From Okamejei kenojei (lineage: Eukaryota): a stretch of 64,000 nucleotides of DNA. Within the stretch, counting starts at the first letter, position 1; the number at the start of each line of letters is the position of its first letter. The position numbers and the translations under genes are program-made. The notes under the pieces are model-generated. The model was given only the letters and a program-made list of their open reading frames with translations, had not been told where the DNA came from and ran no database searches. Where the stretch lies: NCBI GenBank assembly GCA_035221665.1, contig CM069148.1, positions 46,996,001 through 47,060,000 on the forward strand. Direction: 5' to 3'. Below, piece by piece: positions 166 through 55,366 of the stretch.

Positions 166-198
166 CAGACCATGGCAGATACCAACCACCCAGTGAAG
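166..198 (+). CDS. Micro-exon type B (33 nt, phase 1-1), ADHGRYQPPSE, of a putative Pro/Tyr/His-rich repeat protein
   Basis: ccttttccccag|CAGACC...AGTGAAG|gtcagt; polypyrimidine tract with AG acceptor and GT donor; repeated in each tandem unit. Confidence 0.75.
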
Positions 199-1317
199 GT
201 CAGTCACAGTTTGAATGTTCTTCAATTTGGGAAAATAGTGATGGATCCACTTGTTCCCGGAGTCAGAACCCTTTGTCTCTGACACTGGCTGTGGAGCTGG
301 TGAAGATCTGCTTGTCCAATTAATTTATCTTCTCAGGCGCTCCCGCAGGTTGGAGGGTGACTCACTTCCACTCAGACGCAGGTCACACAGCGTGGAAACG
401 GGCCGTTTGGCTAAAACTGACCACAATACTCCAAATATGGCCTCACCAATGTCTTGTACCGAATTTACACAACCTCCCAAGTTCTGTCCTTAATACTCCG
501 ACTGAAGAAGGCCAATGTGCTGAATGCTTTCTGAAACATGATATATTCCTGTGACGCCACTTTCAAGGCCCTATGTGCATGTGCGCCCAGATCCCTCTGT
601 TCTACAACACTCCCCAGAGACCGTCTACTTTGTGCAGGTCCTCAAATTTCAATGTACCTTAATTGGTACATGTGACAATTAAATTGAATCTTGAATCTTG
701 CCCTGGTGAGACTTTCAAAAATTCAACAGCTCACATATCTCTATTAATGTCCTTCAAGGTTAAAATTTAACATTTGGTTCCCTCACTTAAAATGGGTAGG
801 AAGGAATTGCAGATGCTCGTTTACACCGAAGATAGACAGAACAATGCTGGAGTAACTCAGCGGGACAAGCAGCATCTCTGGATCGTAGGAATGGGTGTGG
901 TTTCGGGTCGCGATCTTTCTTCAGTCTCTAGCAGGGTCTCGACCCAAAAGGTCACCCATTCCTTCTCTCCTGTAAGGAAGCCTGTCCCTCTGTTACTCCA
1001 GCAATTTGTGTCTACCCCTCACCCAAAACATTCATGACATTGAATGTCTGAGGACCAAGCATTGATCCCGATAGCACCGTTCAGTCACTGCCATCGAACC
1101 CGACACTCATGCTTATTTCCTCATGCTTGTTTCTTGTACGCTTGTCTGATTTCAAATTTCATTACCAATCTGCATGCAGATTTACATATTCTCATATTTT
1201 AATAAAATGTAAGTTTATCGAGATATTAATCTGCATCTTTCCCATGTGTTATTTGAATTTCTGAGTATACGCAGTTCGTTCTTGATAATGTTTAATATCT
1301 GACTTTCTATTTCACAG

Positions 1318-1356
1318 CACCACCCCACGAGCATTATCCACCAGCTTATGAACCAG
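1318..1356 (+). CDS. Micro-exon type A (39 nt), APPHEHYPPAYEP
   Basis: ctgac branch-like motif, tttctatttcacag| acceptor, CAG|gtaaga donor. Confidence 0.8.
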
Positions 1357-1664
1357 GTAAGATCTGGTCTGGCCAGAGTCAGATATTCACACCTCGAGCT
1401 CTGTCCATATTCTACTGTTGGTTTTCCTCCAGTGTTTCAATGTGTCCTTTGAAAAGAAAATCCAATTATCCTTTTGAATGCAGCATCATTCTGCGATGTG
1501 ATCCGTTAACCTTCCCAGCAATGTCCTTCCTTTCACTGTGAACTGACCTTGTTATCCTTCATCACTAGACAGACCAATCCACGTCGTTCCCCAGACGTAA
1601 AGTCCTTTGTTTTTGAAACGTGTTTCCCTTGTTCCAGCGGTGGAATACTTCATGATGAGAGTTA

Positions 1665-4093
1665 AACCCCTGTCTCACGGTGTGAGTTTGCCCACAAGTG
1701 ACCCCGAATTTTCACTCGTGGTGATCACGTAGCGGGTACGTCGGAACTCGCACGAGCAACTTATCGACTCGTGGCGCTAACGGCAGGTACTCGGGAAACT
1801 TGTTAGCTTGTGAAAAAAATCAAACATGTTTGATTTTTTCCACGAGTCAAATTGTTTCCACGAGTCAAAGTAAAAAATTGAATCACTTAAACTCTTTGTA
1901 ATAACGTAGTGGCCCGTGCGTTTAACTTAGTGACTCGTGAGTCTCTGTGGGAACTTTCTTATAATCTGTTCGTTCACTCGAGTAAAGACTGAACCAAAGA
2001 TAGACACAAAATGCTGGAGTAACTCAGCGGACCAGGCAGCATCTCTTGGAGAGAAGGAATGGAATCGAGACATTTCTTCAGACTTACCCGAAACGCCACC
2101 CATTCCTTCTCTCCAGAGATGCGGCCTGTCCCGCTGAGTTCTCCATCATTTTGTGTCTATCTTCGACCTTTCTGCGATGATCTGCCACTTGTCCTTTATT
2201 ACTGAGGCGCCTGCCCCGCGGCTTCGTATTCATCACTGTCTCAATGAACAGCTTCGCGGTTAAAGACCTGCCGGAGGGGCAAGTCTGGGGCAGTGGGTGG
2301 GATGTGTCCACATGTGATGCTCCATCCATCACCCCGGGGCCGTGAGTGTGGGATTGGGAAGGAACTGCAGATGCTGGTTTACACCGAAGATAGACACACA
2401 CGATGCTGGAGTAACTCCGAGGGACAGGCAGCATCTCTGGAGAGGTGGGATGGGTGAGATTTCGGGTCGAGACCCTACTTCAGACTTCTCCAGAGATCCC
2501 GCTGAGTTTACTCCAGTAGTTGGTGTCTATCCCGGCGTCGGGGAGCTGGACTTGGCCGACCCGCCACCTCTACTTGCCGGTCAGTCCGGTGATCATCGCC
2601 CTCCGCCCGGGATGCAGCGGAGGTTTGCACCCAGTAAGTTGTCCAGCTTCACGGTGGACAAGGGAGGACAGCAATAGGCCAGGTGAATGAATAGCAGCAG
2701 CATTTCTTGATTTTGTGTTTTAATTTACAAGCCACTTCACGTGAGGCAAATTTTATTTTCAGTCCTGAAGAAGGGTCTCGACCCGAAACGTCACCCATTC
2801 AACGATAGACACAAAAAAGCTGGAGTAACTCAGCGGGTCAGGCAGCAACTCTGGAGAGAAGGAATAGGTGACTTTTCGGGTCGAGATCCTTCTTCAGAAG
2901 ACGAGCCCTTATCTGAAACGTCACCTATCCACGTTCTCCAGAGATGTTACCTGGCCCGCGTTGTTACTCCAGCTTGTTGCGTCTGCCTTCCGTCTAAAGC
3001 CTTGGGATCGTCGCCGACGTGAAGACGGTGCGAAGCCCCCGCGCCCGGTGCAATGGGCGGGGAGCTGGAGAGGGGAGGGAAGGGGTCACACACATGGCCG
3101 GGAAGCAGAGGGGTGGGGAGTGGGGACGTGGCGATGGCGGGTGATTGTCGCCTCACTGGGCCCCTAAAATGATCTAAGTAAATGCAATAAGATACTAAGA
3201 TGGAGAAATAACAGAGAGATTTGGGCCAGAAAATGGCATGCAGTGACGTAGGACGTACATGGTTAAAGGAGACCTACAATAGCGCATGATATCTTTGGTG
3301 TGCTGGCCTTTATAAATCAGAGCTTTGGCGGGTGTACAATTGGTCGCCTGCCAGAGGAGCTAGAATGTTGCCTTTCCAGCAATATGTTACCAAGTTAGGT
3401 CTTTATTCTTTAGGTTAAGACCTTTAAAATTGGGATCGAATTGCTTTACCAGAGGTGGTTCGTAGGTATATGGACGTGAAGGAATGGAGGGGTATGGTCT
3501 GTGATGGACTAGGGGGGTGCTGTACTATGGGGGCGTGGGGGGTGAGGGGGTATTGTGCTGCTTGATTGCCCCCTGCTATCATAGGGACAGGGAGACACAG
3601 CGGCTTTGAGACTGGTGGGCAATCACTACCAAAGTGTCTGCCTGCAGTCAGAACTCCTCTCCTACACATGTCTCCCGCACTAAGACCATCCCGCAGAGAA
3701 TAATCCCAGCACCCAAGAGCCTTGTCTGTCACCCCCCACCCCCAACCACCCTCCACCTCAACTTACGCCTGGGCACCAAAGCAGCTCAGGAGGCGAACCC
3801 TGAGCTTCCTCTCCCAACAATCTGATGTGCAACTGATGTGAAAGTACAGCGGCTGCGGCCGGCACCCGGACACCCTCACACACTTACCTTCATTCACGGT
3901 TGGCCCAAGAGTAACGGGAGAGGAACTTGGTAACTCGGGAGAGGAACTTGGAACATCGCAGCAATGACATACCCGTGGGAACTCAGTTAAACACTTGATC
4001 ATAAACTTGAAATCTCGTACATAACCACAAGTCTGTTTTTTTTCTTTCACTTGGGGTCACTCGTGGAATGACTCGCACTGTGAGACAGGGCCT
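1665..4093. mobile_element. Non-autonomous PIF/Harbinger-like DNA transposon with nested Penelope pLTR fragments
   Basis: Imperfect TIRs (aacccctgtctcacggtgtgagt / actcgcactgtgagacagggcct); TTA duplicated at 1662-1664 and 4094-4096; empty site gagttagcgag present in the paralogous unit near 14970. Confidence 0.7.
2765..2792 (+). ncRNA. Putative minimal hammerhead ribozyme core in a Penelope pLTR fragment
   Basis: CTGAAGA-a-GGGTC tc GACCC-GAAACGTC matches CUGANGA, stem II, GAAA and a GUC cleavage triplet. Confidence 0.55.
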
Positions 4094-4642
4094 TTAGCGA
4101 GAGGCTCCTTGAGGCTGACAAGGTGACAGGAAGCTTGAGCTTTCCTTGTGCTCCCTCTGCACGAGCTGTTGGGTTCAGCAACCTGTCCACCGTTTAAATT
4201 CAGCTTACCTCTGGTGAACACAAGCATGTGTCCACACCATGACATAGGAGTCCGCCTGTCCCTTGTCAACATGCCCTTGAGGGAGCAGTGTTGGCTGAAC
4301 AGGAACTGGGGGCTGAAGTCAGTCCCCACTGAGACAGGGCTGGGTCAGTGAGAGATCCTGTTAGGAGGCTGGTTCCCTCTTGTTGCCAAATTCCTTCTCA
4401 GATTATTGTCTGGTGCAGTGACTGCTCGCCGGTGGACATCATGAGCAGCGGTAGAGCTGTTCAGAACAGGGGTGTCTCCAGATCCTGTTCCAAGTATTGG
4501 CCGGTGTATAATGGGATGACTGGCTGTCCCCATCTCATTGAATTACTAATTACATCCGTAACTTCCATCTGTTATTTAAATACATCGGTATCATCAGCAT
4601 TGATGTCATTTATGGTGGTGATATTTGAATCCTTTTCCCCAG

Positions 4643-4675
4643 CAGACCATGGCAGATACCAATCACCCAGTGAAG
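4643..4675 (+). CDS. Micro-exon type B (33 nt), ADHGRYQSPSE
   Basis: ccttttccccag|...GAAG|gtcagt. Confidence 0.75.
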
Positions 4676-6178
4676 GTCAGTCAGAGTTTGAATGTTGTTG
4701 AATTAGGGAAAATAGTGATGGATCCACTTGTTCCCTGAGACAGAACCCTTTGTCTCTGACACTGGCTGTGGAGCTGGTGAAGATCTGCTTGTCTAGTGAA
4801 TTTGTCTTCTTCTCAGGCGCACCCTCAGGTTGGAGGGTGACTCACTTCCACTCAGACTCATAGTCAAACAGCGTGGAAACGGGCCCTTTGGCAAGATCTG
4901 ACCATAATATTACAAATTTGGCCTCACCAATGTCTTGTACCACAGAAACAAAACCTCACAAGTTCTGTCCACAATACTCTGACTGAAGAAGGCCAATGTG
5001 CTGAATGCTTTCTGAAACATGATATATTCCTGTGACGCCATGTTCATGGCCCTGTGTACCTGTGCTCCCAGATCCCTATGTTTTACAACACTCCCCAGAG
5101 CCCGACTACACTGTGCAGGTAGATGGTACATGTGACAATTAAATTGAATCTTGAATCTTGCCCTGTTTCAAAAATTCAACAGCTCACATATATCTATTAT
5201 CGTCCTTCAAGGTTAAAATATAACATTTGGTTCCCTCACCTAAAATGTGTAGGAAGGGATTGCAGATGCTCATTTAAACCGAAGATACACAGAACAATGC
5301 TGGAGCAACTCAGCTGGACAGGCAGCATCTCTCAATGATATGAATAGGTGTTGATTCGGGTCATGATCTTTCTTCAGTCTAGAGCATGGTCTCGACCCAA
5401 AAGGTCACCCATTCCTTCTCTCTTGTGAGGAAGCCTGTCCCTCTGTTACTCCAGCAATTTGTGTCTACCCATCACCCAAAACATTGATGACATTGAATGT
5501 CTGAGGACCAAGCATTGATCCCTACAGCACCGTTCAGTCACTGCCATCGAACCCGACACTCCCATTATTTCCTCATCCCTGTTTCTTGTTCGCTTGTCTG
5601 ATTTCAAATTTCATTACCAATCTGCATGCAGATTTACCTATTCTCATATTTTAATAAAGGGTAAGTTCAAAGTTTATCGAGATATTAATCTGCATCTTTC
5701 CCATGTGTTATTTAATAGTAAGATTACCAAGTTCGAAGGTTGATCTTTATTTAATGAGGAGTTGCGGTGAGGGATTTTGTGAAGACCCCGCCAGCACGCA
5801 TGCACGACATCCTTCAAAGCAGCGGTGTGGAATCACAGAACGCACCATGACTGAAAATAGTAAGATGAAGAACGTAGAACATACCAGTTGACCTGATGAT
5901 AGAGGGTGGGAGCGGAGGGGATGAAATCCCTCACCGCAACTCCTCATAAAATAAAGATCAACCTTCGAACTTGGTAAGTTCTCGTTTAATCTTACTGTTT
6001 TACTTCGGAGTCACCAAAGATTTCAAAGCTCTGTGATTTCACGGCCTGGACAACGTCCATGCTATTACACAGCCGCAATCCTGATGGAGGAAGGCTATTA
6101 ATGCAGTTCAGTCGGAACAGGCTGAAAAATAATGCATATTTATTGCACAAATAATAATAAACAAATAACCCCTAACAT

Positions 6179-7996
6179 TCACTGAACGGCTCCCAGCACA
6201 GCTTCTACGAATGTTGCGGGGGCGACCAGTGGTTTGTTGTAGAATCTTTGGAAGGTTGCTTCACTAGCCCAGCCCGCGGTGGCGAGGATGTGGTCCATGG
6301 GCACCTCCATGGCCCTCGCCACTGATGTGGATGCAGCCCTAGTAGAGTGAGATTTAAAAATGTTAGTAGCGACTCCTGCTGCACCCAACACCGCCCTGAG
6401 CCACCTGGCGATAGTCTGCACAGTCACCCAGTGATGCGGAGGTTTGTGGCTCATGAGGAGCCCCTGCTCCATCTTCCTGATGGTTCGTGTAATGCGGATG
6501 TAGAGGTGGAGATGGGTGACTATGCAGAGGGTGGCATCAATAGGGTACGCCCAAACCTCCAACTGCAGCCCATGAGCCCCAGGTCTGTGCTGCTTCAATA
6601 AGTCCTGGACTAAGAAAATCACCTGTGTAGGGGTGGAGACCATGCTATCCAGCCGCAGCTTTTGTAATGCCTGGACTCGTTGAGCTGTAGTCAGTGCCAT
6701 CAGCATCACCACTTTGAGGGTGAGCTGTTTGAGTGGTAACTTGGTCATAGGAGACCAGCTCCTCAGTAGGGTCAGAACGATCCCTAGATCCCAGGTGAAG
6801 TTGTATCTGGGCCGTGGAGGGTTGGTGTTAAACACTCCCCTCATGAATTTAGACACCAGGTGATTGGAGCCTATGTCCAGGTATGAGGACAGTGCACTCC
6901 TGACGCTGTTGATGGCACTGTAGCTAAGGCCAGCATCGAAATGAAGGCCCGCTAGAAATTCCAGAACATCAGGGATTGTTGTCGAGTTGGAAGTCGTGTT
7001 GGTACGAGAGCAGAATGCCTCCCACTTCCTGATCTGTGTGAGGTACTGCCTCTGGGTTGATACTCGGCATGATGCTGAGATGAGTTCCATGGCTCGTGGT
7101 GAGATGCCGGCCTTGACGAGCTGTCTTTTTAGAACCTGCAGGCCAACAAGTTTAGGTGACCATGGCACGGGTGACTGTCCCCCGTAATGGGATGAGTAAT
7201 TAATCAGAAGCCATGGATGTTTCAAGATTTTAAGGACCATCGGGTACCATGGCTGTGTAGGCCAGTCGGGAATGATCAATATGCCAGTTGCAGAATCCAG
7301 TTTAATTTTCTGGAATACCCGACTGATGAGGCAAAATTGGGGAAATGCGTAGCAAAACCATTTCCCCCAATGGATAGAAAACGCATCCATTGCTATTGCC
7401 CCAGGGTCTGGTTCCCAAGACACATACGTTGGTATCTGATGGTTCAACCTGGACGCAAAGAGGTCAATATCTGGTGTCCCATAGTGAGCTATAATGTTAG
7501 CAAAAATTTTGGGGTTCAACATCCACTTGATGTTGTCATTGAACACTCGTGACCTGGTGTCCGCCACTGTATTGAGCTTCCTTGGCAAATAGGTCGCTGT
7601 AATCCAAATATTTCTCTCGATGCACCAGTGCCAAATTGTGTTTGCCAATTCATCACAAGATAACGACCTGATACCACCCATATGATTGATATAAGCCACC
7701 ATTGTGTTATCTATTTGGAGGCGGACATGTAAGTCCCGTGAGTTAGTACAGTAAGCCCATAGTCCATGGAATGCCCCTAACATCTCCAGATAATTTATCC
7801 CTTGTGACTGGCGAAGGGTAGACTCATGAGAGTCCCATCTGCCACCACAACTGGACATGGTGTCAGTTGCACCCCAGCCTTGTGCGCTTGCATCAGTCTG
7901 TAGCACGGCGGATGGGTTGCTTACAATGATGGGTCTGTAACACTTGCTAATATTGTCAATCCACCATTGTAGCTCGGCTCTAGCCTGTTGTGGCAA
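6179..7996 (-). pseudogene. DIRS RNase H / methyltransferase plus tyrosine recombinase (fused in one frame, probably by a frameshift)
   Basis: TDASAQGWG, INYLEM, DNT and ADTRSR (RNase H); DLFAS...YAFPQF (DAM-like MT); TAQRVQAL, HSTRAAS and AGWASEATFQRFY (YR catalytic motifs). Confidence 0.9.
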
Positions 7997-8005
7997 CCAG
8001 ATTGG

Positions 8006-8322
8006 TCAATCAAAATGCCCAGCATTTGCTTTAAATGCTGCGATCTTTGTTCTTTGTAAATTTTGGTAATGTAATGGGCCGAATTGCGCAGCTGAGAATG
8101 TAGCTACCAGCTTCTCAATCACTTTTGCCGTTTGCCGGATGGTCGGAACCCTGGCGCAAGCAAGGCTGTGGCACGCTTCTTCTATGGCGATAGCTTTGTG
8201 GGTTGGGATAGTGATCAGCACTAAGGTTGTGTCAAGGGTGAAACCCAGGTAATCCATAATTTGAGAGGGGTGCAGTTTGGATTTGTCTGGATGGGTTACA
8301 AACCCTAGCATCTCGAATAAAG
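8006..8322 (-). pseudogene. DIRS reverse transcriptase, C-terminal part
   Basis: LGFVTHPDKSKLHPSQIMDYLGFTLDT; continues the 9951-10317 RT across the Penelope insertion. Confidence 0.85.
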
Positions 8323-9950
8323 TGTTGAAGAAGGAACTGCAGATGCTGGAGAATCGAGGGTACACAAAAGGCTGGAGAAACTCAGCGGGTGCAGCAGCAT
8401 CTAAGGAGCGAAGGAGATAGGCGACGTTTCGGGTCGAGACCCTTCTTCAGACAGGTCAGGGATCAGGGAAACGAGAGATATAGACGGTGATGTGGAGAGA
8501 TAAAGAACAATGAATGAAAGATATGCAAAAAAAGTATCAATGATAAAGGGAACAAGCCATTGTAAGCTGTTTGTGGTGTGAAAATGAGAAGAGGGTGCGA
8601 CTAGGGTGGGGGAGGGAGATAGAGAGAGAGGGAATGCCATTTCACCACCAACTTCCATCCGGCACTCAAATACACTTGGACCATTTCCGACATTTCCCTA
8701 CCATTCCTTGACCTCACAATCTCTATTGCAGGTGATACACTCCTGACCGACATCCACTACAAACCAACTGACTCCCACAGCTACCTGGACTACTCTTCCT
8801 CCCACCCTGCTTCCTGTAAGGACTCCATCCCCTATTCCCAATTCCTCCGCCTACGCCGCATCTGCTCCCAGGATGGGGTGTTCCACACCAGGTCATCACA
8901 AATGGCCTCATTCTTCGGAGAACGGGGTTCCCCTCCCCCACTGTAGATGAGGCTTGCACCAGGGTCTCCTCCATACCCCGCAACACTGCCCTCTCTCCCC
9001 ATTCCCCCATTCGCAAACAGGGCAGAGTCCCCCTGGTCCTCACCTTTCACCCCACTAGCCGGCAAATACAACACATAGTCCTCCACGAGTTTCGCCACCT
9101 CCAACGTGACCCCTCCACTCGCCACATCTTCCCATCTCCCCCCCTGTCTGCCTTCCGCAAAGATCGCTCCCTCCACAACTCCCTTGTCAATTCTTCCCTT
9201 CCCTCCCGCTCTACCCCTTCCCTGGGCACTTTCCCTTGCAACCGCAAGAAATGCTACACTTGTCCCTTCACCTCCCCCCTCCACTCCTTCCAGGTCTGAC
9301 AGAGGTTCACCTGCACCTCCTCCAACCTCATCTACTGCATCCGCTGCTCCAGATGCCAGATGATCTATATCGGTGAGACCAAGCGGAGGCTTGGCGATCG
9401 TTTCGCCGAACATCTCCGCTCGGTCCGCATTAACCAACCCGACCTCCTGGTGGCTCAGCACTTCAACACCCCCTCCAATTCCGTATCCGACCTCTCGGTC
9501 CTGGGCCTCCTCCACGGCCAGAGTGAGCAACACCTCAAGTTGGAGGAACAGCACCTCATATTCCGCTTGGGGAGTCTGCATCCTCTGGGCTTGAACATTG
9601 AATTTTCTCAATTCTGTTAACCCTTGCTGTCTCCCACCCTTCCCACCTCTCCCTCAGCCCTCGGGCCCTGGCATTCCCTCTCTCTCTATCTCCCTCCCCC
9701 ACCCTAGTCGCACCAGCTTCTCATTTTCACACCACAAACAGCTTACAATGGCTTGTTCCCTTTATCATTGATACTTTTTTGCATATCTTTTATTAATTGT
9801 TCTTTATCTCTCCACATCACCGTCTATATCTCTCGTTTCCCTGATCCATGACCAGTCTGAAGAAGGGTCTCCACCCGAAACGTCGCCTATCTCCTTCGCT
9901 CCTTAAATGCTGCTGCACCCGCTGAGTTTCTCCAGCCTTTTGTGTACCCT
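8323..9950 (+). mobile_element. 5'-truncated Penelope-like element (RT C-terminus plus GIY-YIG endonuclease) with inverted pLTRs
   Basis: YIGETKRRLGDRFAEHLRSV...VAQHFN...GLN at 9360-9620; ~8357-8640 is inverted against ~9670-9950; 12-bp duplication tctcgaataaag at 8311-8322 and 9951-9962. Confidence 0.9.
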
Positions 9951-10600
9951 TCTCGAATAAAGATTTAGTCGCTGTAACTGCCAGTGTAGCCAATTGGAGG
10001 GTCTGACCCACGATAAGGATATCGTCTAAATATGCCATGACGATATCATTTTGTTGTCGGAGGAGGGCCAATATAGGTTTCACTAATTTGGTAAATAGTC
10101 TGGGGGCTGTGGTGAGCCCATTAGGAAATGCTTTGTATTCCCACAACTGTCCCTTCCAGACAAATTTCAGAAACTTTCTGTGCGATTCAGTGATGGGCAC
10201 TGTATAGTATGCATCTTTTAAATCGATACAGGCCATTAAGTACCCCGGGTAAAGCATCTGCTTAGCTGTTTCGAAGGTATCCATTTTAAAGTGGGTATAT
10301 TGTACAAAAGTGTTCAACTCGGTTAGGTCTATGATAATCTGACACTCCCATCTTTTTTGGTTTTGGTGAAGATGTTGGACACATACTCAAGAGGTTCATG
10401 CGAGCCGTAAGATTTCGGCATGTCCTGCCTCAATCTCATTTTGAGAGAGTGTAAATTTTCGATGAGGTGCATGCTGGGTAGGGGGAAGTTGACCATCAAT
10501 GAATTCTATGACATAACCTTGAACACTTTGTAGAATAAATGCGTCAGTGGTGATAGTGTCCAGGGCTCCCCTAAATGCCCACAACCGTCCCCCAATTTGT
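9951..10600 (-). pseudogene. DIRS reverse transcriptase, N-terminal and core region
   Basis: HFKMDTF, IDLKDAYYTVPI, PNGLTTAPRLFTK, YLDD. Confidence 0.92.
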
Positions 10601-10652
10601 GCAGGAAGAGATGCTACTGCCTGAGAGGAACCAGACCCCCTTACCTCCATGG

Positions 10653-42999: not shown

Positions 43000-43026
43000 G
43001 CGAACCATACTTCTACAGACCACCAG
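43000..43026 (+). CDS. Micro-exon type C (27 nt), GEPYFYRPP
   Basis: cctttcttttctag|GCGAACC...CCACCAG|gtacaa. Confidence 0.75.
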
Positions 43027-44266
43027 GTACAACAAATTGACCTGCAATGTTTGATAGTTTTTTTCGACTGTGATTACGTTTTGATTCTTTCCATTTAATA
43101 GATCACTACCTTACCTGACACAGTATGTGTGTGTATATAGACAAACTATTATCAGAATCTCTCATGACGACACAAACTCAGTGGGTGCGCTGAGAATATT
43201 TGCACCTTGTACACCAAGGATGTACTCTGAGCTTTGGTTTGAGACTAATACCATCAAATGCAGTCGCTAATATTTTGTCCAGACTGTTCATTTTTGACGC
43301 CAAGATGCTTTTGTCCCACTTTTCCCTCATTTCATCAATTATTTTTAAGTGACATTTTTTCAGAAGACTTGGATGGTGAGTTACCTTACCGCAGTGCTAA
43401 ATATTTTTTCCTTTGCCTGCTGAAAAAGGTTTGTTGCCAAAATATTGAATTGAGCTGCCTCCCTGCCAAAATGGATAAACTGGACTGTATTATACATTGC
43501 AATAGAACATAGAATATAGTACATTACAGCTCTGGAACTCGCCCTTCGGCCCATCATGTCTGTGCTGAACTTGAGGCCAAGTTAAACCAATGTTCTCTGT
43601 CTTCACGTGATCCATAACTCTCCATTCCCAGCGTATCCATGTGTCAATCTAAAAGCTTCTTAAATGCCACTCATAACCATTCATAACCATGCCTTCATCA
43701 GGTGAACTGTTCCAATCTGGTTGCGTGTGCCCTGATGTCTGACACGGCATTAGCAACAGGAAATCCACAGCACCCTTGGCTTTGACCGAGCATCCATTGC
43801 ATTTTGTTTTGTCGACTTTGTTATTAATTAACGGCCGCATTTGATTTGCACTCGAGTGCAAACCAACTGGCTGTTTGCACACACTCTTCAAAGTGTTTCC
43901 AAGTTTTCATCAAATGTAGCCAGAATCTCCAAAGGTGATTTAAGGGCTATTGTGATTCCAACAGGATGAAGGAGATTCTTATTGAGGAGCGAGCTGCGAA
44001 CCTGTACATCTGTTTCTTTGTTTTGATTAGTATCTGGCCAGACTGAGTCAACCCAGTTTTCAAGTCTGCGCCGTGTTGTTCTGAACACAGAGATCAGTTC
44101 CTGTTGTTGTAAGTTGACATTTTTTAACAAGCCAGTGTTGTCAGTTTATGTTGTACAGAGCTGGACAATATCATCAACTTATCAATGCTCATCAACTTAT
44201 TCATCTGTTCTGTAAGCAGCATGTCCACCTAATTCCTTCCTTTGGAAATGTCTTCCTGTTTTTCAG

Positions 44267-44293
44267 GAGAACCGTACTTCTACAGGCCACCAG
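44267..44293 (+). CDS. Micro-exon type C (27 nt), GEPYFYRPP
   Basis: cttcctgtttttcag|GAGAACC...CCACCAG|gtacaa; all three differences from 43000-43026 are synonymous in phase 1. Confidence 0.78.
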
Positions 44294-44334
44294 GTACAAC
44301 AAATTACCTTGCAATATTACCCTGCAATATTTGC

Positions 44335-45482
44335 AATATCGTGACTTTCAGAAAGCCTTTGATAAGGTCCCGCACGGGAGACTGGCGACTAAAATTAAAA
44401 CACATGGTATTGGGGGTAGGGTATTGACATGGATAGAAAATTGGTTGGCAGACCGGAAGCAAAGAGTAGGAGTGAACGGGTCCTTTTCAGAATGGGAGGC
44501 AGTGGCGAGTGGAGTGCCGCAAGGCTCGGTGTTGGGGCCGCAACTGTTTACCATATATATTAATGATTTGGAAGAGGGAATTAGGAGCAACACTAGCAAG
44601 TTTGCAGATGACTCAAAGCAGGGTGGCAGTGTGAACTGTGAAGAGGACGTTAGGAGGTTGCAGGGTGACCTGGACAGGTTGAGTGAGTGGGCAGATGCGT
44701 GGAAGATGCAGTATAATATAGATAAATGTGAGGTTATCCACTTTGCCGGCAAAAACAAGGGGGCAGATTGTTATCTCAATGGGGTTAGGTTAGGTAAGGG
44801 GGAGGTGCAGCGAGACCTGGGCGTCCTTGTACACCAGTCACTGAAAGTTGGCTTACAGGTACAGCAGGCAGTGAAGAAAGTTAATGGAATGTGGGTACAC
44901 AAAAAGCTGGAGAAACTCAGCGGGTGCAGCAGCATCTAAGGAGCGAAGGAGATAGGCGACGTTTCGGGTCGAGACCCTTCTTCAGACCCTTCTTCAAAGT
45001 TAATGGAATGTTGGCCTTCATAACAAGAGGATTTCTTCTGCAGTTGTATAGGGCTCTGGTGAGACCACATCTGGAGTATTGTGTACAGTTTTGGTCTCCT
45101 AATTTGAGAAAGGACATCCTTGTGATTGAGGCAGTGCAACGTAGGTTCACGAGATTGATCCCTTGGATGGCGGGACTGTCATATGAGGAAAGATTGAAAA
45201 AACTAGGCTTGTATTCACTAGAGTTTAGAAGGATGAGGGGGATCGTATATAGAAACATATAAAATTATAAAAGGGTTACACAAAAAGCTGGAGAAACTCA
45301 GCGGGTGCAGCAGCATCTAAGGAGCGAAGGAGATAGGCGACGTTTCGGGTCGAGACCCTTGTGTAACCCTCAATTCTCCAGCATCTGCAGTTTCTTCGTT
45401 AAAATTATAAAAGGTCTGGACAAGCTAGATGCAGGAATCTATGATGCAGGCTCCTCCTGCACCTATTTTCTATGTTTCTATC
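44335..45482 (+). mobile_element. 5'-truncated CR1 LINE containing two short Penelope pLTR insertions
   Basis: DFQKAFDKVPH...[11 protein letters not shown]...FADD; tttctatg tail; insertions at 44893-44995 and 45275-45399. Confidence 0.9.
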
Positions 45483-48065
45483 TAATATTCTGAAGCTTTT
45501 ATCTTTGATACGTTTAAGTCTCTTTACGTTTGCTTCTTACGCTTTATCAATTTCTTCTTGTTTATCTAATTATTTGGAAGTAGAAATGTTTCCAGATTTC
45601 ATCGAGGCATTGGTTCACTGACTAGAGTGATAGAGTGATACAGTGTGGAAACAGGCGCCTCAGCACAACTTGCCCACACCGGCCGACATGTCCCAGCTAT
45701 ACTCGTCCCACCTGCCTGCGTTTGGTCCATATCCCTCCAAATCGGTCCTATCTATGTACTTGTATGTTTCTTAAACGTTGGGATAAAGGGAAGTTACATC
45801 AAACCTTGACCCTTAATCCAGCTTTATGCATACTTGTTGTAGTTTGGTTCAGGAACTGAAAATTGACTTTTTTGCACTCAATTGAGTGAGGTCCAGTTGA
45901 TCTCTTCTCTTTCTCTGTGGCTTTCAGTTCAGTTCAGTTTAGTTTATTGTCACGTGTACCGAGGTACAGTGAAAAGCTTTTGTTGCATGCTATCCAGTCA
46001 GCAGAAAGACAATACATGATTACAATCGAGCCATTTACATTGTACAGAAACATGATAAGGGAAGAATGTTTAGTGCAAGGTAATGGCAGCAAAGTCGGAT
46101 CAAAGATAGTCCGAGGGTCACTAATGAGGTAAATAGTAGTCACAGACTGCTCTCTGGCTGTGATGTGATGGTTCAGTTGCCTGATAGCAGCTGGGAAGAA
46201 ACTGTCCCTGAATCTGGAGGTGTGCACTTTCAGACTTCTATATATTTTGTTCAATGGAAGAGGGGAGTAGAGGGAGTGGCAGGGTGCGACTCGTCCTTGA
46301 TAATGCTGCTGGCCTGCCAGTTTTGGACAAAATGATCCCATCGGTTCTTTATTCATGTTTCCGGTAATCTCCATCCTTTTCCAATTTCATTGAAAAATTT
46401 GACTTTTTCATAATTTAATAATTCCTTATGACATAGAAGGAAGCCATTCAACCCATCAATTATATACTGGCCTTCTAAGCAACCCTCTCAATTGCAGGTC
46501 CCTTTGTATTTCCCTTCTTTCTTGCACATGCCCATTTCCCACTCGTATTTAAAAAAAACCAGCATATTATAGTAGCCAATTGTCCTACCAACTCACATGT
46601 CTTTGGGATGTGTGAGAAGACTTGGGATCCCCCCTGGTCTCAGGAAGATCATGCAAACCTCACACAGAAAGCACCCAAAATTTGAAATCTAGGTCACTGA
46701 AATCTGTAAGACATTAGGAGACAGTCCAGAGTGAAAGAGCTAATAGTCAAATCTAATAGTCAAATCTAAAATGGAGTCATTCTTCCACAAAACCTTGATC
46801 GAGTAGAACAAAAGAATGGCTCGGTGCCAAGTCTGAATGACTTTGTAAATTATATGGAGCACAATAGGTTATCTTTTCAATAAAGCCATTAAGATGGCAG
46901 CTTGCAGTAATAACAGGTGCTCCTTTTCAAGGCCGTAAAGAAGCCAAGACTGAAAAAAATAGCTGACGCTCCAGAGATAAGTAATAACATGTTATTGGAT
47001 GAGCTTGATTTGGACCCAGCTTTTCTTATGTTCTGAAAGGCGACAGAATCTTTCAGTCATGCCATATTCGGACTTGGTAGGAGTGTTTTACTGATAAGAA
47101 AAATGTATAATTGTGCTAACTCTCCTTTGTTCTGTGAGTGGAGCCTGAGAAGCACTGAGCAACGTTTGTGCTCATTGTAGATCTTTGCCACTCTCGTCTG
47201 ACGAATCAATTAAAAATTGCCATGGTTTACCTTTTACAGTTGCTATCTGCTTTTCAAGAAACAAACCTTGACAAGAGGATGTTTATAAGAATGATCTCAG
47301 GGATAATTGGGTTAACAAACGAGGACATTTGAAGGCTCTGAGCCTGTGCTCGCTGGAGTTTAGTTTAGTAACAAGGTACAGTGAAAAGCTTTTTGTTGCT
47401 ATCCTGTCAGTGAAAAGACTATACTCAATTGACAGAATAAATGTGATTTCTGCAGAGGACCTCCAAGGAAGTGTAAAATGCATGAAGTTGATTGGATTAA
47501 AGCAAACTAAGTGTATATATTGTAAATAATGTTGCTAGACAGTTACCCTGCTGTTTGTTGATTGGCCAAAGTGTTGAGCCCCTGGTAGGTTTGCTTGGAT
47601 TCCAGGGTAATGTCAATAATATATGGTTGTAATTAATATGTTTGATTGGATTGTATTATTATCCTTATTAACAATACAAGATTACAATCAAGCCATCCAC
47701 AGTGCACTGATATAGGATAAAAGGTATAACGGTTGTGCAAGGTAAATTACAGTTTGAAGGTCTTCAATGGAGTAGATGGAAGCTCTCTAGTTGTTGAGAA
47801 GACCGAGGTGCCTGATAACATCTGGGAAGAGATTGTCCCTGATTCTCTGAGGTATGCATTTTCAAACTTCTGTACATCTTTCCTGATGAGCGAGAGGATA
47901 AGAGGGAATGACCGGGGGGAGATTGGTCCTTGGTTATGTCGGTGACCTTGCCGAGGCAGTGTGAAGTGTAAATGGAAGGGAGATTGACTTGTGTGATAGT
48001 CTAGGCTATGTCCAGAACTCTCTGCAGTATCTTGCAGTCTTGGTTGGAGCTGTTCCTGGCCTTAT

Positions 48066-48632
48066 TGGCCTGTCCCACTGCCGTCAACTGTCATAGTCGC
48101 AGTGGTTCGCCAAAAAAACGGTGACTGAACCCCCCTACGACAATGTCTACGTAAATGTCTACAGAACCTACCACCTGGTCGATGTCCAGCTACGGCAAGC
48201 TGCCGACAACTGGCAACACATTAGGAAGTCCACCTATGACCACACCTACGACAACCTACGTCCACCCGTGACAAGAAACGGCAAGGTCAGACAATTCAAT
48301 CGCCGATACCTGTCACCGGTTGCCGTAGGTAGTCGCCAATGGAATTCACCGAAGTCAGCACTGGCGACAACCTACCTCACCTGGCGACATCCTACATCAT
48401 CCTAGCGACAACCTACGGCAAGAGAAGACAACCTACGATAATTGGCATCAAGTACCACTCTGGCTGACTGTCGCAGAAAGGTTTTGAACATTTCAAAATC
48501 TAGTGGCGACCAGAAAAATGCTACGACTCTTTGGGCGACTGATGAGACCAGTCACAACCATACAGGCAACACCCCACGACCATGTGGCGACAGCCTAGTC
48601 ACCTAAAAAAATCACCTAAGTTGGACAGGGAG
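48066..48632. mobile_element. Probable Harbinger-like MITE
   Basis: Ends ggcctgtcccact / agttggacaggg resemble the TIRs of 1665-4093; internal gacaacctac repeats. Confidence 0.45.
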
Positions 48633-48639
48633 ATTATGT

Positions 48640-50710
48640 TAAATTCTTCGTTGTGCTGATGCAGTGGTCCTGTCCAACTCTTGCTCTCCGCACCTGGAAC
48701 ACCTGGTGGTGGGATCTCAATCAAAAGCATCCTTTGTCTGCAGAGATGCTGCCTGACCCGTTGAGTTACTCCAGTAAACGTGTCAATCTTGGGTGATGTG
48801 CCGTCCCTTCAATCTCCCGAGGGAATTCACCTCCATCATCATGACTGCGGTCTGCATCCCACCCCTGACAGATGTTCATCGAGCTCTGCAACATCTGCAC
48901 ACCATGGTCAGCAAACACCAGACGATGTATCCCAACGACCTTTCATATTGTAAACAAGGACCTCAACAAGGCCAGCTTGACGAAATCACTACCAAACTAC
49001 TAACTACGACCAAGTCCTGCAGCTTCAAAGAATCAAACACCCTTGACCACAGCTATTTTACCATCGGGATGCCTATCACTCCATCCCTCACCCTCACTTT
49101 AGGGAAATTTGACCATCTGTTTGCTCCTTCTTCCCTTGTACAAGCAGCGACTGGAGAGTGCAGCCCCTGTGGTGAGGATTGTGCAGAGCTGATCAGGGGA
49201 GGCAGAGGACTGAATCCAGGATTGCTTGGAGTCGGCAGACTGGCCAATGTTCAAGGACTCGGCCACACACCTGAACGAAAACATTACGGTTGTTACCGAC
49301 TTCATAATGAAATTTGTGGGGGAATGTGTTCCCATAAAAATAATCCAAGTGTTCCCCAAATGGAAGCCTGGGATGAATCGGGAGGTCCACAATCTTCTCT
49401 GGACCAGACCAAGTTCAAATACAACCTCCAAGGCCATCCAAAAGGCTAAAATTGATTTTTGCTCTAAACTGGAGGTTAAGCCAAACATTTTGCACCTATA
49501 GCAGGGCTTGCATGCCATGACTTCCTACAAGGCAAAACCAGGAGGCAGCTCAAGTGACAGCGAGGCATCACTCCCAGATGAGCTCAATGCATTCTATGCA
49601 TGCTGCAATCGAGAGAACATTAACGTGCCTTCTCATACCCCCGTAGTCCCCAATGGTATTGCAATCTCAATCACCGAGGCCAACGTGAAGCTCCTTCAGG
49701 AGGGTGAACCCTGGGACCTGATGGTGTATCTAGTTGCTTTCTCAAAACCTGCACAGACCAACTGCCTGGAGTTTTTGCAGTCTTATTTAACCCCTCGTTA
49801 TTGAGGTCTGATTGTCTTACCTGCTTTAAGTGAGAGTAAGGTGACGTGCCTCAATTACTATAGACCGATAGAAGTGTTGTTCATGGTGATGAGGTGCTTT
49901 GAGAGGTGTGTTATGGCGGATATCAACTTCTATCTCAGCAAGAACCTGGGCCCACTACAGTTTGCCTACTGCCACTATAGAGCAACGGAAGATGTGATCT
50001 TGCTGGCTCTCCACTCCGCACTAAACCATTCGGACAATATGAACACATGTCAGGCTGTGGTTCATAGAGACAGCGTGGCATTCAACATCATTATCCCCAA
50101 CGCACCTGTTACCAAGATCAGAAACGTGCATCCCTTTGCAACTGAATCCTCAACTTCCTCATCAACAGAGTAAAATTGGTGCAAATTGGCAACACTTCCT
50201 CCTTGATAACTATCAGCACAGGGGCACCTCAAAGCTGTGTGCTGAGTCATCCGTTCTACTCACTCTACACCCTGACTGTGTAGCCGGGTACAATTCCAAC
50301 CCTATTTTTTTAAATCGCTGACAACACCACCAATGTTGGATGAATTGCGGATAATGATGAGTACAAGATGATCGTCTGACTGAATGAATCGAGAACACCA
50401 ACTTTGTTCCCTAATTCAGAAAAACCAAGGAACTGATTGTTGACTTTAGAAGAGGAAGGCCAAGAATTCACAAACCTGTCTTTATTGACAGGACAGTGGT
50501 GGAGAAAGTCAACAAGTTCCTGGGCATACATATCTCTGTCCTGGACCCAGCACATTGATGTAATCATAAAGAAACCCCATCAATGCCTGCTTAGACTGAG
50601 GAGATTGTGTCGACAAATATCCTCTTGAACTTATACAGGTGCATGGTAGGGAGTATGTTGACTTATTGCATCATGGCCTGGAATGCCCAGGAATGAAGGA
50701 GATTGCACTA
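48640..50710 (+). mobile_element. Degenerate Rex1/Babar LINE (APE plus RT)
   Basis: CRPFNLPREFTSIIMTAVCIPP, SLPDELNAFYA, CLNYYRPI...MRCFER, PLQFAY. Confidence 0.8.
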
Positions 50711-50829
50711 ACCCAAACCAAAGTCCGATGGAGCTGCATCATGACTTCCTGACTCTTAATTTCGTTGCTCCTAGCAATGAAAGCAAGCATACCATATACA
50801 TTATTTGTTTTAATTTGTTTTAATTTTTA

Positions 50830-51310
50830 TTTATTAGAAGCCGTGTACAAAAATATAAGCAGCGGTATATGACATAACAGTTATTGTACAGCTTCAATTT
50901 TAATTTGTAGCTAAAGATGAAAGAAAAGAGAGAAAAAGCAAGAGAGAGAAAAAGTGGTTGTGCAAGAATAGAACCCCTGGACTACCAAATTAGTGTAGCC
51001 AAAGAGTGAGTAAGTAAAAGAAATAAGAAAGACGTAGAGAAATAAAAAGGACAAAAACAGAAAAGAAAACCTGCTTCGTATCCCTCCCCACCCATCACCC
51101 AGCAAAATTGTGTTGCACCATAGTATCCTTGTAATGAATCTATGAATGGTGTCCATGTCTTCGAAAAATACTCTGGTTTTTCTGCTAAGACAAGTCTCAT
51201 ATTTTCAAGATGTAGCATCTCAGACATGTTTGTAATCCACATTTTGAGAGTAGGGGCAGATGTATGTTTCCAAAATTTGTTTATTAGTTTTTTCGCCATT
51301 ATCGGACCAT
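50830..51310 (-). mobile_element. L1/Tx1-like LINE 3' fragment
   Basis: AKKLINKFWK...PTLKMWITNMSEMLHLE...WTPFI, similar to the 62530-62715 C-terminus. Confidence 0.65.
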
Positions 51311-52669
51311 AATTGAGTCATAGAGTGATACAGCGTGGAAACAGGCCCTTCGGTCCAACTTGCCCACACCGGCCAACACTGACCTAGCTACACTAGTTCC
51401 ACCTGCCTGTGCTTGGTCCATATCCCTTCAAACCTGTCCCATCCATGTACCTGCCTAACTGTTTCTTAAATGTTGGGATAGTCCCAGCCTCAACTAACTA
51501 ATCTGGTAGCTTGTTCCATTAACCCACCACCCTTTGTGTGACAAAGGTACCCCTCCAATTCCGATTAAATCTTTTCCCCTTCACCTTGAACCTATATTCT
51601 CTGGTCCTCGATCTCCCCTACTCTGTGCATCTACCCGATCAATTCCTCTCATTAATTTACACACCACTATAAGATCACCCCTCATCCTCTTGCGCTCCTA
51701 GGAATTGGGACCTAGCCTATTCAACCTCTCCCTATACATAGCTCACACTCTCTAGTCATGCCAACATCCTCATAAATCTTCATTGAACCCTTTCAAGCTT
51801 GACAATAGTTGAACCCTTTCAACTCTTATAGACTTGGACCCCAAGCATCTGAGCACTAATTACAAATTTTTGTGGATGTTGTTATCATTTTTTTCTCAAG
51901 TGCAAACCAACTGAATATATGCACAGGCTCTTCATAAAATTTCCAAGTTTTCATCAAATATGGCAAGAATCTGTGCTGCAGAATGTGAGGGATGATATTA
52001 ATTTCCATTGTGCAGGACTGGATGTGCAAGATTCTGTTGAGTTCATAAGAGATAGGAACAGAATTAGGCTATTCAGCCCATCAAGTCTACTCTGCCATTC
52101 AATCATAGCTAATCTATCTCTCCATCTTAACCCAATTCTCCTGCATTAATCCCATAACCCCTGACATCCATACTAATGATGAATCTGTCTATCTCTGCTT
52201 TAAAAAATATCCATTGACCTGGTCTCCACAGCCTTCTGTGGAGTGAGCTGTGAATTGGTATGTCTGATTCTTTGCTTTGATCAGTATCAGGCCTGGCTCA
52301 GACTGGGTTGACACCATTTTAAGTCTTCATCAAATGCAGCATGAATCTCCAAAGGAGCTACGGAATTTCGGGGCTAATGTGATTCCAACTGCGAAGGACT
52401 GGATGAGCGAGATTTTCATTCAGAAGTGATCTGTGATTTTTTTTTTGCTTTGATCAGTATCGGGCCTGAGTCGGCCAGACTGGTCGCCCAGTTTTCAAGT
52501 CTGTGTCCTGTTGCACTGAACACAGACATCAGGTCCTGTTGCTGTGATAGGACATCGTCTAACAAACCATGGTTGCCGGTTTTCATTATATCTAATGCTC
52601 AACAACTGGTTCATCTGATTGTAATGCCTAACTAACTTCTTCCTTTGGAAATGTAATTCTGTTTTCCAG

Positions 52670-52693
52670 ATGAGCCCTACTACAGGCTACCAG
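52670..52693 (+). CDS. Micro-exon type C (24 nt), DEPYYRLP
   Basis: ttctgttttccag|ATGAGCC...CTACCAG|gtacag; one-codon in-frame deletion. Confidence 0.7.
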
Positions 52694-52799
52694 GTACAGC
52701 AAATTGACCTACATTGTTCCATAGTATACATTTTAAGTTCTATCCATTTTTCCCATACCTCTAATTATTTAGAAGTATAAGTATTCCTAGATTATTTAG

Positions 52800-53272
52800 A
52801 CAATAGATGCAGGAGTAGACCATTCTGCCCTTCGAGCCAGCACCGCCATTCAATGTGACCATAGCTGATCATCCACAATCAGTACCCCGTTCCTGCCTTC
52901 TCCCCATATCCCCTGACTCCGCTATCTTTCAGAGCCCTATCAAGCTCTCTCTTGAAAGTATCCAGAGAACCGGCCTCCAGAGACTCACAACTCTCTCTGT
53001 GAAAAAGTGTTTGGTCATCTCCATTCTAAATGCCTTACCCCTTATTTTAAACTGGGGCCCCTGGTTCTGGACTCCCCCAACATCGGGAACATGTTTCCTG
53101 CCTCTAGCGTGTCCAAACCCTTAATTAACTTGTATGCTTCAATAAGATTCCCTCTGATCCTTCTAAATTCCAGAGTATACAAGCCCAGCCACTCCATTTG
53201 CTCAGCATATGACAGTCCCGCCATCCCGGGAATTAACCTTGTGAAACTACGCTGCATTCCTTCAGTAGCAAG
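52800..53272 (-). mobile_element. CR1 LINE 3' fragment (duplicated at ~55470-55965)
   Basis: QRSFTRLIPGMAGLSY...LGLYTLEFRRIRGNLIE on the minus strand. Confidence 0.8.
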
Positions 53273-55339
53273 AATGTTGACTATGACTGCCCAGGATGAA
53301 GGTTTGCTCCCTGACCTGATACAATGGGACGGATGTGTACACAAAGTATAAATGGCTTATCTGATTAAGACACAATCTCAATGTGTATATTGAAGAGTTT
53401 TGGACCTTGTGATTTGACGTTTTACTCAGACCAGATACTGGCCATACATTGACCCTTGACCTAGCATTAGTTAATTTTGTTGCAGTCTGTTTATTTATGC
53501 TTTGGGAACTGAACACATACAGGTTGCTCTCATTTTTGGGGCTATAGAGCGCAGAACAGATCAGCATAGGAACATGCCCTCCAGCCCGAAATGTTTTTGT
53601 GATCTTAATGACAACTTAAATGAACACCATCTGCCTGATGATGGTCTACCTCCCTGCATTCCCTGCCTGTCCATGCACCCGTCTAGATGCCTCTTAAACA
53701 ACAAGATTGAATCTGCTTCCACCAGCGCCACTGACATTCCACTTGCCCACCACTTGCTGTTCACATATCTCCTTTAAACTCCCCCCCCCCACCTGAAAGC
53801 TATGCCTTTGACATTTAGTCAAAGTATTTGACATTTCCACCTATCTTCCCTATCTATGCCCGTCATCATTTTATAAACAACTTTCCCCTCAGCCTCCGAT
53901 GCTCATGAGAAAACATTGCAATTTAGTCTAAACTCTCCTTATAGCCAATACCTTCTAATACAGAAAACATCCTGACGAACCTTTTCTTACCCATGTCAAA
54001 GCCTTCACATCCTTCCTGTAATCCGCCCTGTAAACAGAATAGTACACAATACTCCAAATGAGGCATAGCCTAAGTTTTATGAAGCTGCAACATGACTTCA
54101 TAACTCTTATCCTCAATGCCCTGCAGATGAAGGCAAGCATACCATATGTCTTATTTACTACTCTATCTAACTGTTACACCATTTTCAGGAAGCTGTGAGT
54201 ATGCACCACAGGATTCCATTGCACATCAATGCTCCTAAGGGTCCTGCCATTTACTGTACACTTTCCTATTGCGTTTGATCTCTCAACACTCGCACTGGTT
54301 TGGATCAAGCACCATTTGCTAATTTCTGACCATATCTGCAACTGATGTATATCCTGCCGTATGTTCGATGGCCTTCTTCACTGTCCATAACTGATTTTTG
54401 TGTTGTCTGCAAATTTCCTGATCATTCCTTTTGCATTTTCTCCAAATCATTTAAATATATCACAAACATTCTCAACAGTTAGAGAGGCAATTAGGTCAGA
54501 GGTGTATGCGGCAGGATTTTCATAGAGCATTAGTCGGAGAGCGGTGAATTTGTGGGATACTTTGCCACATAAGGCTGTGGAGGCCAAGTCAGTCGATATT
54601 TTTAAGGCAGAGGTAGATACATAGAAACATAGAAAATAGGTGAACGAGGAGGCCATTCGGCCCTTTGAGTCAGCACCGCCATTCATTGTGATCATGGCTG
54701 ATCGTCCGCTATCAATAACCCGTGCCGCCTTCCCCCTATCCTCGACACCACTAGCCCTGAAGCTTACCAACTCTCTTTAAATCCATCCAGTGATTTGGCC
54801 TCCAAATGCCCCTGTGGCAGGGAATTCCATAAATTCAAAACTCCTGGGTAAAAAAGAGATTTATTCTCACCTCAGTCTTAAATGACCTCCTTCTTTATTC
54901 TACAGTGGGCCCCTGGTTTGAACCTCGTCCGCCAACATTCGGGAACATTTATTACCTTTATAGATAGATTCTGTTAGTACTGGTGACAAAAGGTTATGGG
55001 GAGAAGGCAGAAGAATGGGGTTAGGAGTGAGAGATAGATCAGCCATGATTGAATGGTGGTGGAAGCAGATATGATAGTCAAGGTCAAGGTCAGTGGAATG
55101 GCAGATTATTATATCATTCAAGGAATCTTTCCTCTAGCCACTATGATTGAAGACACAGATAAGGAGATAGTTTTGTTACGCATCTACGAGGTTTTCAAGA
55201 CATTCAATGCCGTCCAAGGATAAATCTTGAAAACATATTAATTCCAGGTGCAACAGAGGTTCACCAACTCAACAACTGGTTCATCTGATTGTAATGCCTA
55301 ACTAACTTCTTCCATTGGAAATGTAATTCTGTTTTCCAG

Positions 55340-55366
55340 ATGAGCCCTACTCCTACAGGCTTCCAG
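55340..55366 (+). CDS. Micro-exon type C (27 nt), DEPYSYRLP
   Basis: ttctgttttccag|ATGAGCC...CTTCCAG|gtacaa. Confidence 0.68.

Follow-up and report, generated by a model that had tools for sequence, protein, structure and literature searches.

A Muc6-like mucin gene in the skate Okamejei kenojei with a probable central domain of Pro/His/Tyr-rich micro-exons

Gel-forming mucins carry a Pro/Thr/Ser-rich (PTS) domain, which in human MUC2 and MUC6 is described as encoded by large central exons (PMC6269512) and for which a Ser+Thr content of at least 40% serves as a criterion (PMC4948705). Muc6 is reported from egg white in chicken and from the stomach in humans (PMC1552070, PMC4948705), and Lang et al. 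(2016) class two proteins of the chimaera Callorhinchus milii as Muc6 (PMC4948705). Here we describe a Muc6-like gene of the skate Okamejei kenojei, gene A, whose central domain appears to consist of a long series of micro-exons with a composition other than PTS. The starting point was a window of 64,000 nucleotides (C18:46,996,001-47,060,000; C18 coordinates are those of contig CM069148.1, window coordinates start at 1), in which an initial annotation had recognized 20 short segments as the exons of a hidden gene for a Pro/Tyr/His-rich repeat polypeptide.

These 20 exons very likely belong to gene A, and it is probable that gene A is made as a secreted polymer with such a core. The overall reading that we favor, with some reserve, is that they code for the distal end of a Muc6-like gel-forming mucin's central domain, in which this core replaces the O-glycosylated PTS domain. 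It is built on the position, strand, phase, composition and orthology of the gene, and on an exon architecture shared with a PTS-coding paralogue, gene C. The hidden phase-1 series of Pro/Tyr/His micro-exons is supported as first described, and a secreted disordered chain is plausible; a previously unrecognized stand-alone gene is unlikely, the central domain of a Muc6-like mucin being most likely instead.

Within the window, the segments are found on the + strand just as described, six of 33 nt, ten of 39 nt, three of 27 nt and one of 24 nt (693 nt in total), each with a pyrimidine tract and AG acceptor and with a GT donor. All lengths are multiples of 3, and joined in phase 1 the 20 exons read through without a stop; the composition first counted by hand is likewise reproduced (Pro 25.7%, Tyr 12.2%, His 10.0%; Cys, Trp, Met and Val 0). 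A branch-like CTRAY motif, as noted upstream of type A exons, precedes 45 of the 52 exons of this type in the whole array. As a chance control, a uniform filter returned 22 segments on the + strand of the window and one on the - strand; in five 64-kb windows outside the arrays the same filter returned (+/-) 1/1, 2/0, 2/1, 1/0 and 6/1. Three broken copies also lie inside the window (near 24,140, 36,879/37,554 and 37,828/37,998), and its distal zone is Tyr-rich (24% Tyr) and includes four Tyr-rich, His-free exons, here called type C. The features of the array, in window coordinates, are as follows.

1..55366, + strand: gene A micro-exon array, distal part; the remainder is upstream of the window
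166..198, + strand: type B micro-exon, 33 nt, with a tandem NAGNAG acceptor
1318..1356, + strand: type A micro-exon, 39 nt
4643..4675, + strand: type B micro-exon, 33 nt
12599..12637, + strand: type A micro-exon, 39 nt
13475..13507, + strand: type B micro-exon, 33 nt
14625..14663, + strand: type A micro-exon, 39 nt
16148..16180, + strand: type B micro-exon, 33 nt
22293..22331, + strand: type A micro-exon, 39 nt
23696..23734, + strand: type A micro-exon, 39 nt
24130..24159 (start approximate), + strand: broken type B copy that has lost its acceptor and 5' part to a deletion and keeps the donor
26247..26279, + strand: type B micro-exon, 33 nt
26532..26570, + strand: type A micro-exon, 39 nt
30360..30398, + strand: type A micro-exon, 39 nt
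35149..35187, + strand: type A micro-exon, 39 nt
36879..37569, + strand: broken type B copy in two halves (5' half at 36,879, 3' half ending at 37,569), apparently separated by ~650 nt of inserted sequence
37828..37998, + strand: broken type A copy, both flanks kept, other sequence in place of the exon
38737..38769, + strand: type B micro-exon, 33 nt
40028..40066, + strand: type A micro-exon, 39 nt
41903..41941, + strand: type A micro-exon, 39 nt; exon and flanks homologous to the fourth exon after D3 (73% identity, E 5e-9)
43000..43026, + strand: type C micro-exon, 27 nt, in the Tyr-rich, His-free zone
44267..44293, + strand: type C micro-exon, 27 nt
52670..52693, + strand: type C micro-exon, 24 nt
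55340..55366, + strand: type C micro-exon, 27 nt, the last exon found, with a GT donor
59051..59550, no strand: assembly gap of 500 N, expected to contain the 3' end of gene A together with the 5' part of its paralogue, gene B

Upstream of the array, exons of unique sequence encode TIL, VWD and C8 domains, with Pfam matches to TIL and C8 on single exons. The D1-D2-D'-D3 exons of gene A lie there in order on the + strand (C18:46,598,436-46,718,104), and two probable earlier head exons begin at 46,593,274, for a head extent of C18:46,593,274-46,718,104. The D3 assembly of a gene A orthologue matches the structures of VWF, MUC2, MUC5B and MUC5AC. One head exon is 100% identical to a Leucoraja erinacea record named mucin-6-like, as gene A orthologues are in RefSeq, and 78-96% identical to 11 other chondrichthyan records (15 hits). 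In a tree built on 298 shared columns, gene A falls with proteins of skates, sharks and a chimaera, and genes B and C lie outside this group (bootstrap 98); the outgroup was limited to three teleost rows, with tetrapod Muc6 and Muc19 left out. An SCPP-type gene was also considered and dropped, the VWD head settling the identity; exons of SCPP genes are in phase 0.

With 63 nt, the final exon of D3 finishes in phase 1. The array opens 6 kb downstream with a micro-exon on the same strand and in the same phase; in the non-repeat DNA downstream of that D3 exon there are micro-exon candidates only. Two RefSeq models from other skates make the connection. XP_055505837 of L. erinacea runs on in phase 1 from D3 into the first two array exons, and XP_032894463 of Amblyraja radiata joins D3 to the equivalent of the fourth, after which it uses more array exons in phase 0, following pieces derived from introns. 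The fourth micro-exon aligns, flanks included, to 22 other copies, one of them at window position 41,903. In orthologous models from a catshark and the basking shark (XP_038661963, XP_078405719), repeats resembling EKPxxYYPP come after D3.

The array reaches 272 kb upstream of the window. One unit, searched against the skate's own genome, matched 29 times, always within 46.77-47.21 Mb of C18, and a splice-and-peptide scan of C18:46,576,001-47,540,000 gave 171 candidate clusters, of which 132 were kept by family pattern and 38 dropped as non-family; four linker exons, one of them already among the 171, were added. The intact set after curation comprises 119 exons (46,724,121-47,051,366) and 17 in a second block. 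The window's exons are the final 20 of at least 119 phase-1 micro-exons of 24-39 nt spread over ~327 kb, the first 99 intact ones lying upstream of the window (C18:46,724,121-46,995,353) with ~22 broken copies. Introns of the array measure 124-16,840 nt (median ~1,490). A tandem NAG acceptor stands at the start of 70 of the 119 exons, and 30-nt variants of type B represent a 3-nt acceptor shift that keeps the frame.

Read in phase 1, the 119 exons give 1,338 stop-free residues with 22.9% Pro, 12.4% His, 11.5% Glu, 10.8% Ala, 10.3% Tyr, 6.3% Ser, 5% Gly and 2.5% Thr, and no Cys. Stops in phase 1 occur in 0 of the 119 exons and in phase 2 in 107. Phase 0 is open in the 20 exons of the window and in 118 of the 119, so the lack of stops cannot fix the frame; the upstream D3 exon does. 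The phase-2 frame of the whole array is Thr/Ser/Pro-rich (~48%) though filled with stops, a bias expected from CCA-rich Pro codons. It is conceivable that the core was derived by frame shift from PTS-coding exons.

The second block (C18:47,141,858-47,219,245; 77 kb, 17 exons) lies between assembly gaps. We considered it as a separate gene and rejected this: 95% of it aligns to the gene A array, largely in order and with differences that are mostly indels, and it is probably an uncollapsed haplotype or a misplaced contig copy.

An internal comparison is provided by two more Muc6-like genes downstream on the same strand. Gene B has D2-D3 exons at C18:47,061,151-47,123,439, starting just past the gap in the window on a contig piece between gaps; its D1 and central domain were not found. 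Gene C has D1-D3 at C18:47,362,772-47,457,277, after which come at least 40 micro-exons of 12-30 nt; read in phase 1 they encode Thr/Ser/Pro repeats (C18:47,463,120-47,538,276), this count being a lower bound as the array runs beyond the analyzed region. The PTS filter used on gene C found 0 exons on the opposite strand and five in the gene A array; the gene C exons contain ~80% Ser+Thr, a figure inflated by their having been chosen with that filter. As its PTS domain comes from phase-1 micro-exons, the central domain of a Muc6-like gene in this skate is of that architecture. Gene C keeps canonical PTS content and gene A does not, with 8.7% Ser+Thr over its 1,338 residues against the threshold of 40%; gene A is gel-forming-mucin-like in its predicted head, yet outside the PTS definition of a canonical mucin. 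The gene C array is interspersed with a repeated non-PTS exon (FVVGGTPG). In the C. milii model XP_042197479, one C-terminal repeat peptide becomes mostly Ser/Thr/Pro/Ala when back-translated one frame over, a hint that misread micro-exons of the Thr/Ser type may be present in the chimaera orthologue; two further repeat peptides of the model show no such change.

If gene A works as a mucin, at least 119 symmetric phase-1 micro-exons with one repeat each would be spliced into one mRNA, giving a core of ~1,340 residues, and the head, like that of other mucins, would assemble and become disulfide-linked while passing through the acidic secretory pathway. Acidic residues number 211 in the core, beside 69 Lys/Arg, 166 His and 138 Tyr; its computed charge is +48 at pH 5, -56 at pH 6, -128 at pH 7 and -143 at pH 8 (isoelectric point 5.47). 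It would bear little glycan. Near isoelectric at pH ~5.5 and strongly negative at pH 7-8, it might be compact in an acidic granule and swell, set or cross-link once released, with the titration of His doing the job of glycans and calcium in ordinary mucins. Through its His and Tyr, the core may also bind metal or form oxidative cross-links. The number of exon copies would shift by tandem duplication of intron-exon units and, since all exons are symmetric, duplication, loss or skipping would preserve the frame.

Several observations weigh against this reading. MUC2 heads form filaments at acidic pH and are linked via Cys1088 and Cys1130, and a Cys1130Ala variant is described as giving mixed monomers and dimers with filaments still formed (PMC7599080). 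Gene A keeps the Asp-Cys motif at the Cys1088 position, a point in favor of the reading, but has Thr at the Cys of the C-x-W-H-Y motif, taken as Cys1130 from a short, weak alignment to MUC5AC, where gene C keeps Cys; head-to-head disulfide linkage should weaken as a result. The shark and chimaera orthologue models that reach this position also have no equivalent of Cys1130, and gene B too is without Cys ahead of its W/S-H-Y motif.

Other points concern the two ends of the gene and its transcript. The signal-peptide and stop exons that the initial annotation proposed to look for in neighboring DNA were not found. For the former, the 17 kb upstream of the head (C18:46,576,001-46,593,300) yielded no exon; a hydrophobic ATG frame at 46,593,916 was rejected as a signal peptide, lying downstream of the probable second exon. 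The orthologue model of the zebra shark starts with a hydrophobic stretch (by eye). Downstream of the array no terminal or cystine-knot exon was found, and a gap follows, beginning 3.7 kb past the last exon in visibly degraded sequence; since that exon carries a GT donor, continuation of the gene beyond it is expected. Among 25 matches to PF00007 none falls downstream of gene A on C18, and none belongs to gene B or C. In the genome the type C exons match only at their own four places in the window, so the 3' end could not be traced through them. No spliced transcript was seen: for window 34,900-44,400 no RNA run came up, the four runs found being of one study, of guessed kind and with shares of 0.06-0.07; over the D3 end these covered repeats alone, with no reads on the last D3 exon, and two of them are probably DNA, which makes them uninformative either way. 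The skate RefSeq models are predictions that end early, one of them reading most array exons in phase 0, and only two of the six full shark models get to the repeat region, the other four stopping at or near D3.

The exons themselves add to these reservations. Substitutions between paralogous exons are spread evenly over codon positions (49/49/44), and the ratio of nonsynonymous to synonymous differences (pN/pS) among these exons comes to 0.86 when they are read in phase 1, against 0.97 for phase 0, so that selection on residues is not clear. Flank-only profiles recovered ~25 further copies, 14 of type A and 11 of type B, in which splice sites are lost or the unit is disrupted by insertions, stops or 1-nt indels. 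The absence of stops in the 119 exons partly reflects how they were chosen, namely as intact. The expectation of the initial annotation that exons should be better conserved than their flanks was borne out only modestly: in the most diverged pairs, which are not independent of one another, exons are 72-80% identical and far flanks 62-72%, with 57% for unrelated DNA in the same aligner. Donors in these pairs are 89-100% identical for types B and C and 70% for type A. This fits weak constraint on a low-complexity chain, and does not prove use.

The alternatives differ in what they leave of the mucin. A narrower version of the favored reading, not exclusive of it, is that gene A encodes a quinone-tanned structural component of the egg capsule. 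Elasmobranch egg capsules contain Tyr-rich material and are tanned by catechol oxidase, and the capsule proteins of skates are small and Gly-rich. The 12% His and 10% Tyr of the core and the Tyr-rich (24%) distal zone in the window agree with such a role, as does the origin of Muc6 in the chicken oviduct (PMC1552070, PMC4948705). The Gly content of the core, at 5%, does not suit the small Gly-rich kind of capsule protein, however, and our literature search found no mucin tied to the capsule wall. We regard this version as doubtful.

Rather unlikely, too, is that transcription of gene A stops at D3 or no more than a few exons past it, most of the array being a neutrally expanding tandem repeat of intron-exon units with skipped exons, or that the gene is decaying. 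The pN/pS of 0.86, the modest excess of exon over flank identity, the broken copies, the missing 3' end and the RefSeq models that stop at D3 or soon after all speak for this. Yet two other skates have homologous exons and two sharks have related repeats, type B and C donors are far closer to identity than the far flanks, and the 30-nt type B variants arise by a shift that keeps the frame. Gene C, moreover, encodes a canonical domain with the same architecture, and many of the 1-nt indels lie where the assembly looks poorly polished.

It is improbable that the array forms a micro-exon gene in its own right between two mucin genes, complete with signal-peptide and stop exons. The window exons are 278-333 kb from D3, and the link comes from gene models and homology, not a transcript. 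Still, no candidate for a first or terminal exon was seen between D3 and the array in a scan that covered internal phase-1 exons only, two independent skate models connect D3 to array exons, and the array occupies exactly the place that the PTS domain has in gene C. Least credible of all is a reading of the exons in phase 0 as a Thr/Gln/His/Met-rich chain, as in most of XP_032894463: that frame is open in nearly all exons and pN/pS hardly separates it from phase 1, but D3 ends in phase 1, every exon is a multiple of 3, the model gets to phase 0 only via intron-derived pieces, and the gene C exons yield PTS in phase 1.

Where a Muc6-like mucin with this core would be made is a matter of guesswork. 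The oviducal gland is described as a source of mucin-type jelly and of the egg case (PMC8471067), and shark skin-mucus proteomics reports Muc5B-like, Muc2-like and unnamed VWD proteins (PMC10707392). We would tentatively put oviduct or oviducal gland first, consider stomach or gut a weaker candidate, and allow nearly as readily as for the first for a tissue other than any of these. Speculatively, and with little confidence in the whole, sharks and skates may have converted one Muc6 paralogue, exchanging a Thr/Ser bottle-brush exon by exon for a nearly glycan-free His/Glu/Tyr/Pro structural polymer. This chain would condense at the pH of granules, set or cross-link on reaching seawater and be tuned by exon skipping, both in length and in composition; as a Tyr-rich part of the egg envelope it might provide matrix or bonding, and the chimaera may still have Thr/Ser exons.

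The wider neighborhood and the intervening DNA call for brief comment. Upstream, cystine-knot matches on the - strand (C18:46,018,494-46,018,900 and 45,882,516) and an alpha-adaptin exon (44,969,562, - strand) are consistent with a Muc2/Muc5/AP2A2 neighborhood in a head-to-head arrangement. Downstream, a Cys-rich ORF (open reading frame) at C18:47,270,738 resembled a cystine knot by eye and was rejected, since it matches nothing in Pfam or PDB and lacks a clear splice acceptor. The ~4 kb around this 113-aa ORF (C18:47,268,045-47,271,750) are almost without local repeat matches and are possibly a degraded transposon. The introns of the window hold mobile elements, in line with the first description: six of 12 long ORFs scanned have a Pfam match (reverse transcriptase, endonuclease, integrase, tyrosine recombinase). 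The insertions include, at window 6,179-11,726 (-), long ORFs with a tyrosine-recombinase match, probably a DIRS-like retroelement; a LINE-like element with endonuclease and reverse transcriptase at 27,454-30,056 (-); an LTR-type element with reverse transcriptase, RNase H and integrase at 31,788-35,095 (+); and an element containing reverse transcriptase at 44,118-44,939 (+). At window 12,830 and 15,483, translations resemble the second linker exon (KPVHIIPP-like) and the letters upstream are similar, with no blastn link. Directly past the gap, window 59,551-63,000 is AT-rich (26-30% GC), degraded and repeat-like, and contig ends look poorly polished.

In this skate, two neighboring paralogues thus have central domains in the form of long micro-exon arrays, one of which appears to have replaced PTS by a His/Tyr/Pro/Glu chain. 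A central domain of micro-exons explains why chondrichthyan mucin-6-like models halt at D3 or turn to nonsense. The exact peptides and junctions can now be searched for in egg-case, jelly, gut and skin proteomes; genes A and C form a natural pair for asking how a mucin scaffold alters its material properties, and more than 100 near-identical micro-exons make a test case for splicing fidelity. A protein search with the catshark repeat region matched only itself, one with a 41-aa frame from the window gave no candidate, and the Atlas gave no usable match from a repeat-only query; against 1.84 billion representatives, a 32-aa window frame matched one unrelated-looking repeat protein (E 6e-4). Among titles and abstract openings, and in full-text literature largely outside subscription journals, we found no publication on this array or on a non-PTS center of chondrichthyan Muc6.

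Load-bearing or adhesive secreted proteins rich in His and Tyr have a composition suited to pH-triggered condensation, metal binding and oxidative cross-linking, and the micro-exon genes of schistosomes have symmetric micro-exons. Unlike gene A, neither has a mucin D assembly, and the likeness comes without a demonstrated sequence relation. Closer are the Muc6 mucins (human MUC6, chicken beta-ovomucin and the two C. milii paralogues; PMC4948705), which like gene A have three VWD-C8-TIL units followed by a long repetitive center. Gene A departs from them in a central domain low in Ser+Thr and rich in Pro, His, Glu and Tyr, in the apparent loss of one of two D3 interchain cysteines and in having at least three tandem paralogues; where human MUC2 and MUC6 have one large central exon, it has at least 119 micro-exons (PMC6269512). 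Chicken Muc13 shares the arrangement of one repeat per exon, and splicing-based length variation has been proposed for it (Lang et al., 2006; PMC1552070), but it is a SEA mucin of the transmembrane kind, and its repeats, 12 or more of 20 aa each, are true PTS, whereas gene A is a gel-forming mucin gene with non-PTS repeats of 8-13 aa per exon. The alpha subunit of ovomucin, which is secreted around eggs, likewise combines a gel-forming-mucin head with the absence of PTS (PMC1552070, PMC4948705); it belongs to the Muc2/Muc5 side and is without a central domain, for which gene A substitutes a long repeat of other composition. The nearest precedents are therefore the exon-per-repeat PTS of chicken Muc13 and the PTS-less ovomucin, and what is new here is a Muc6-like gene with a very large micro-exon array of non-PTS composition as its central domain.

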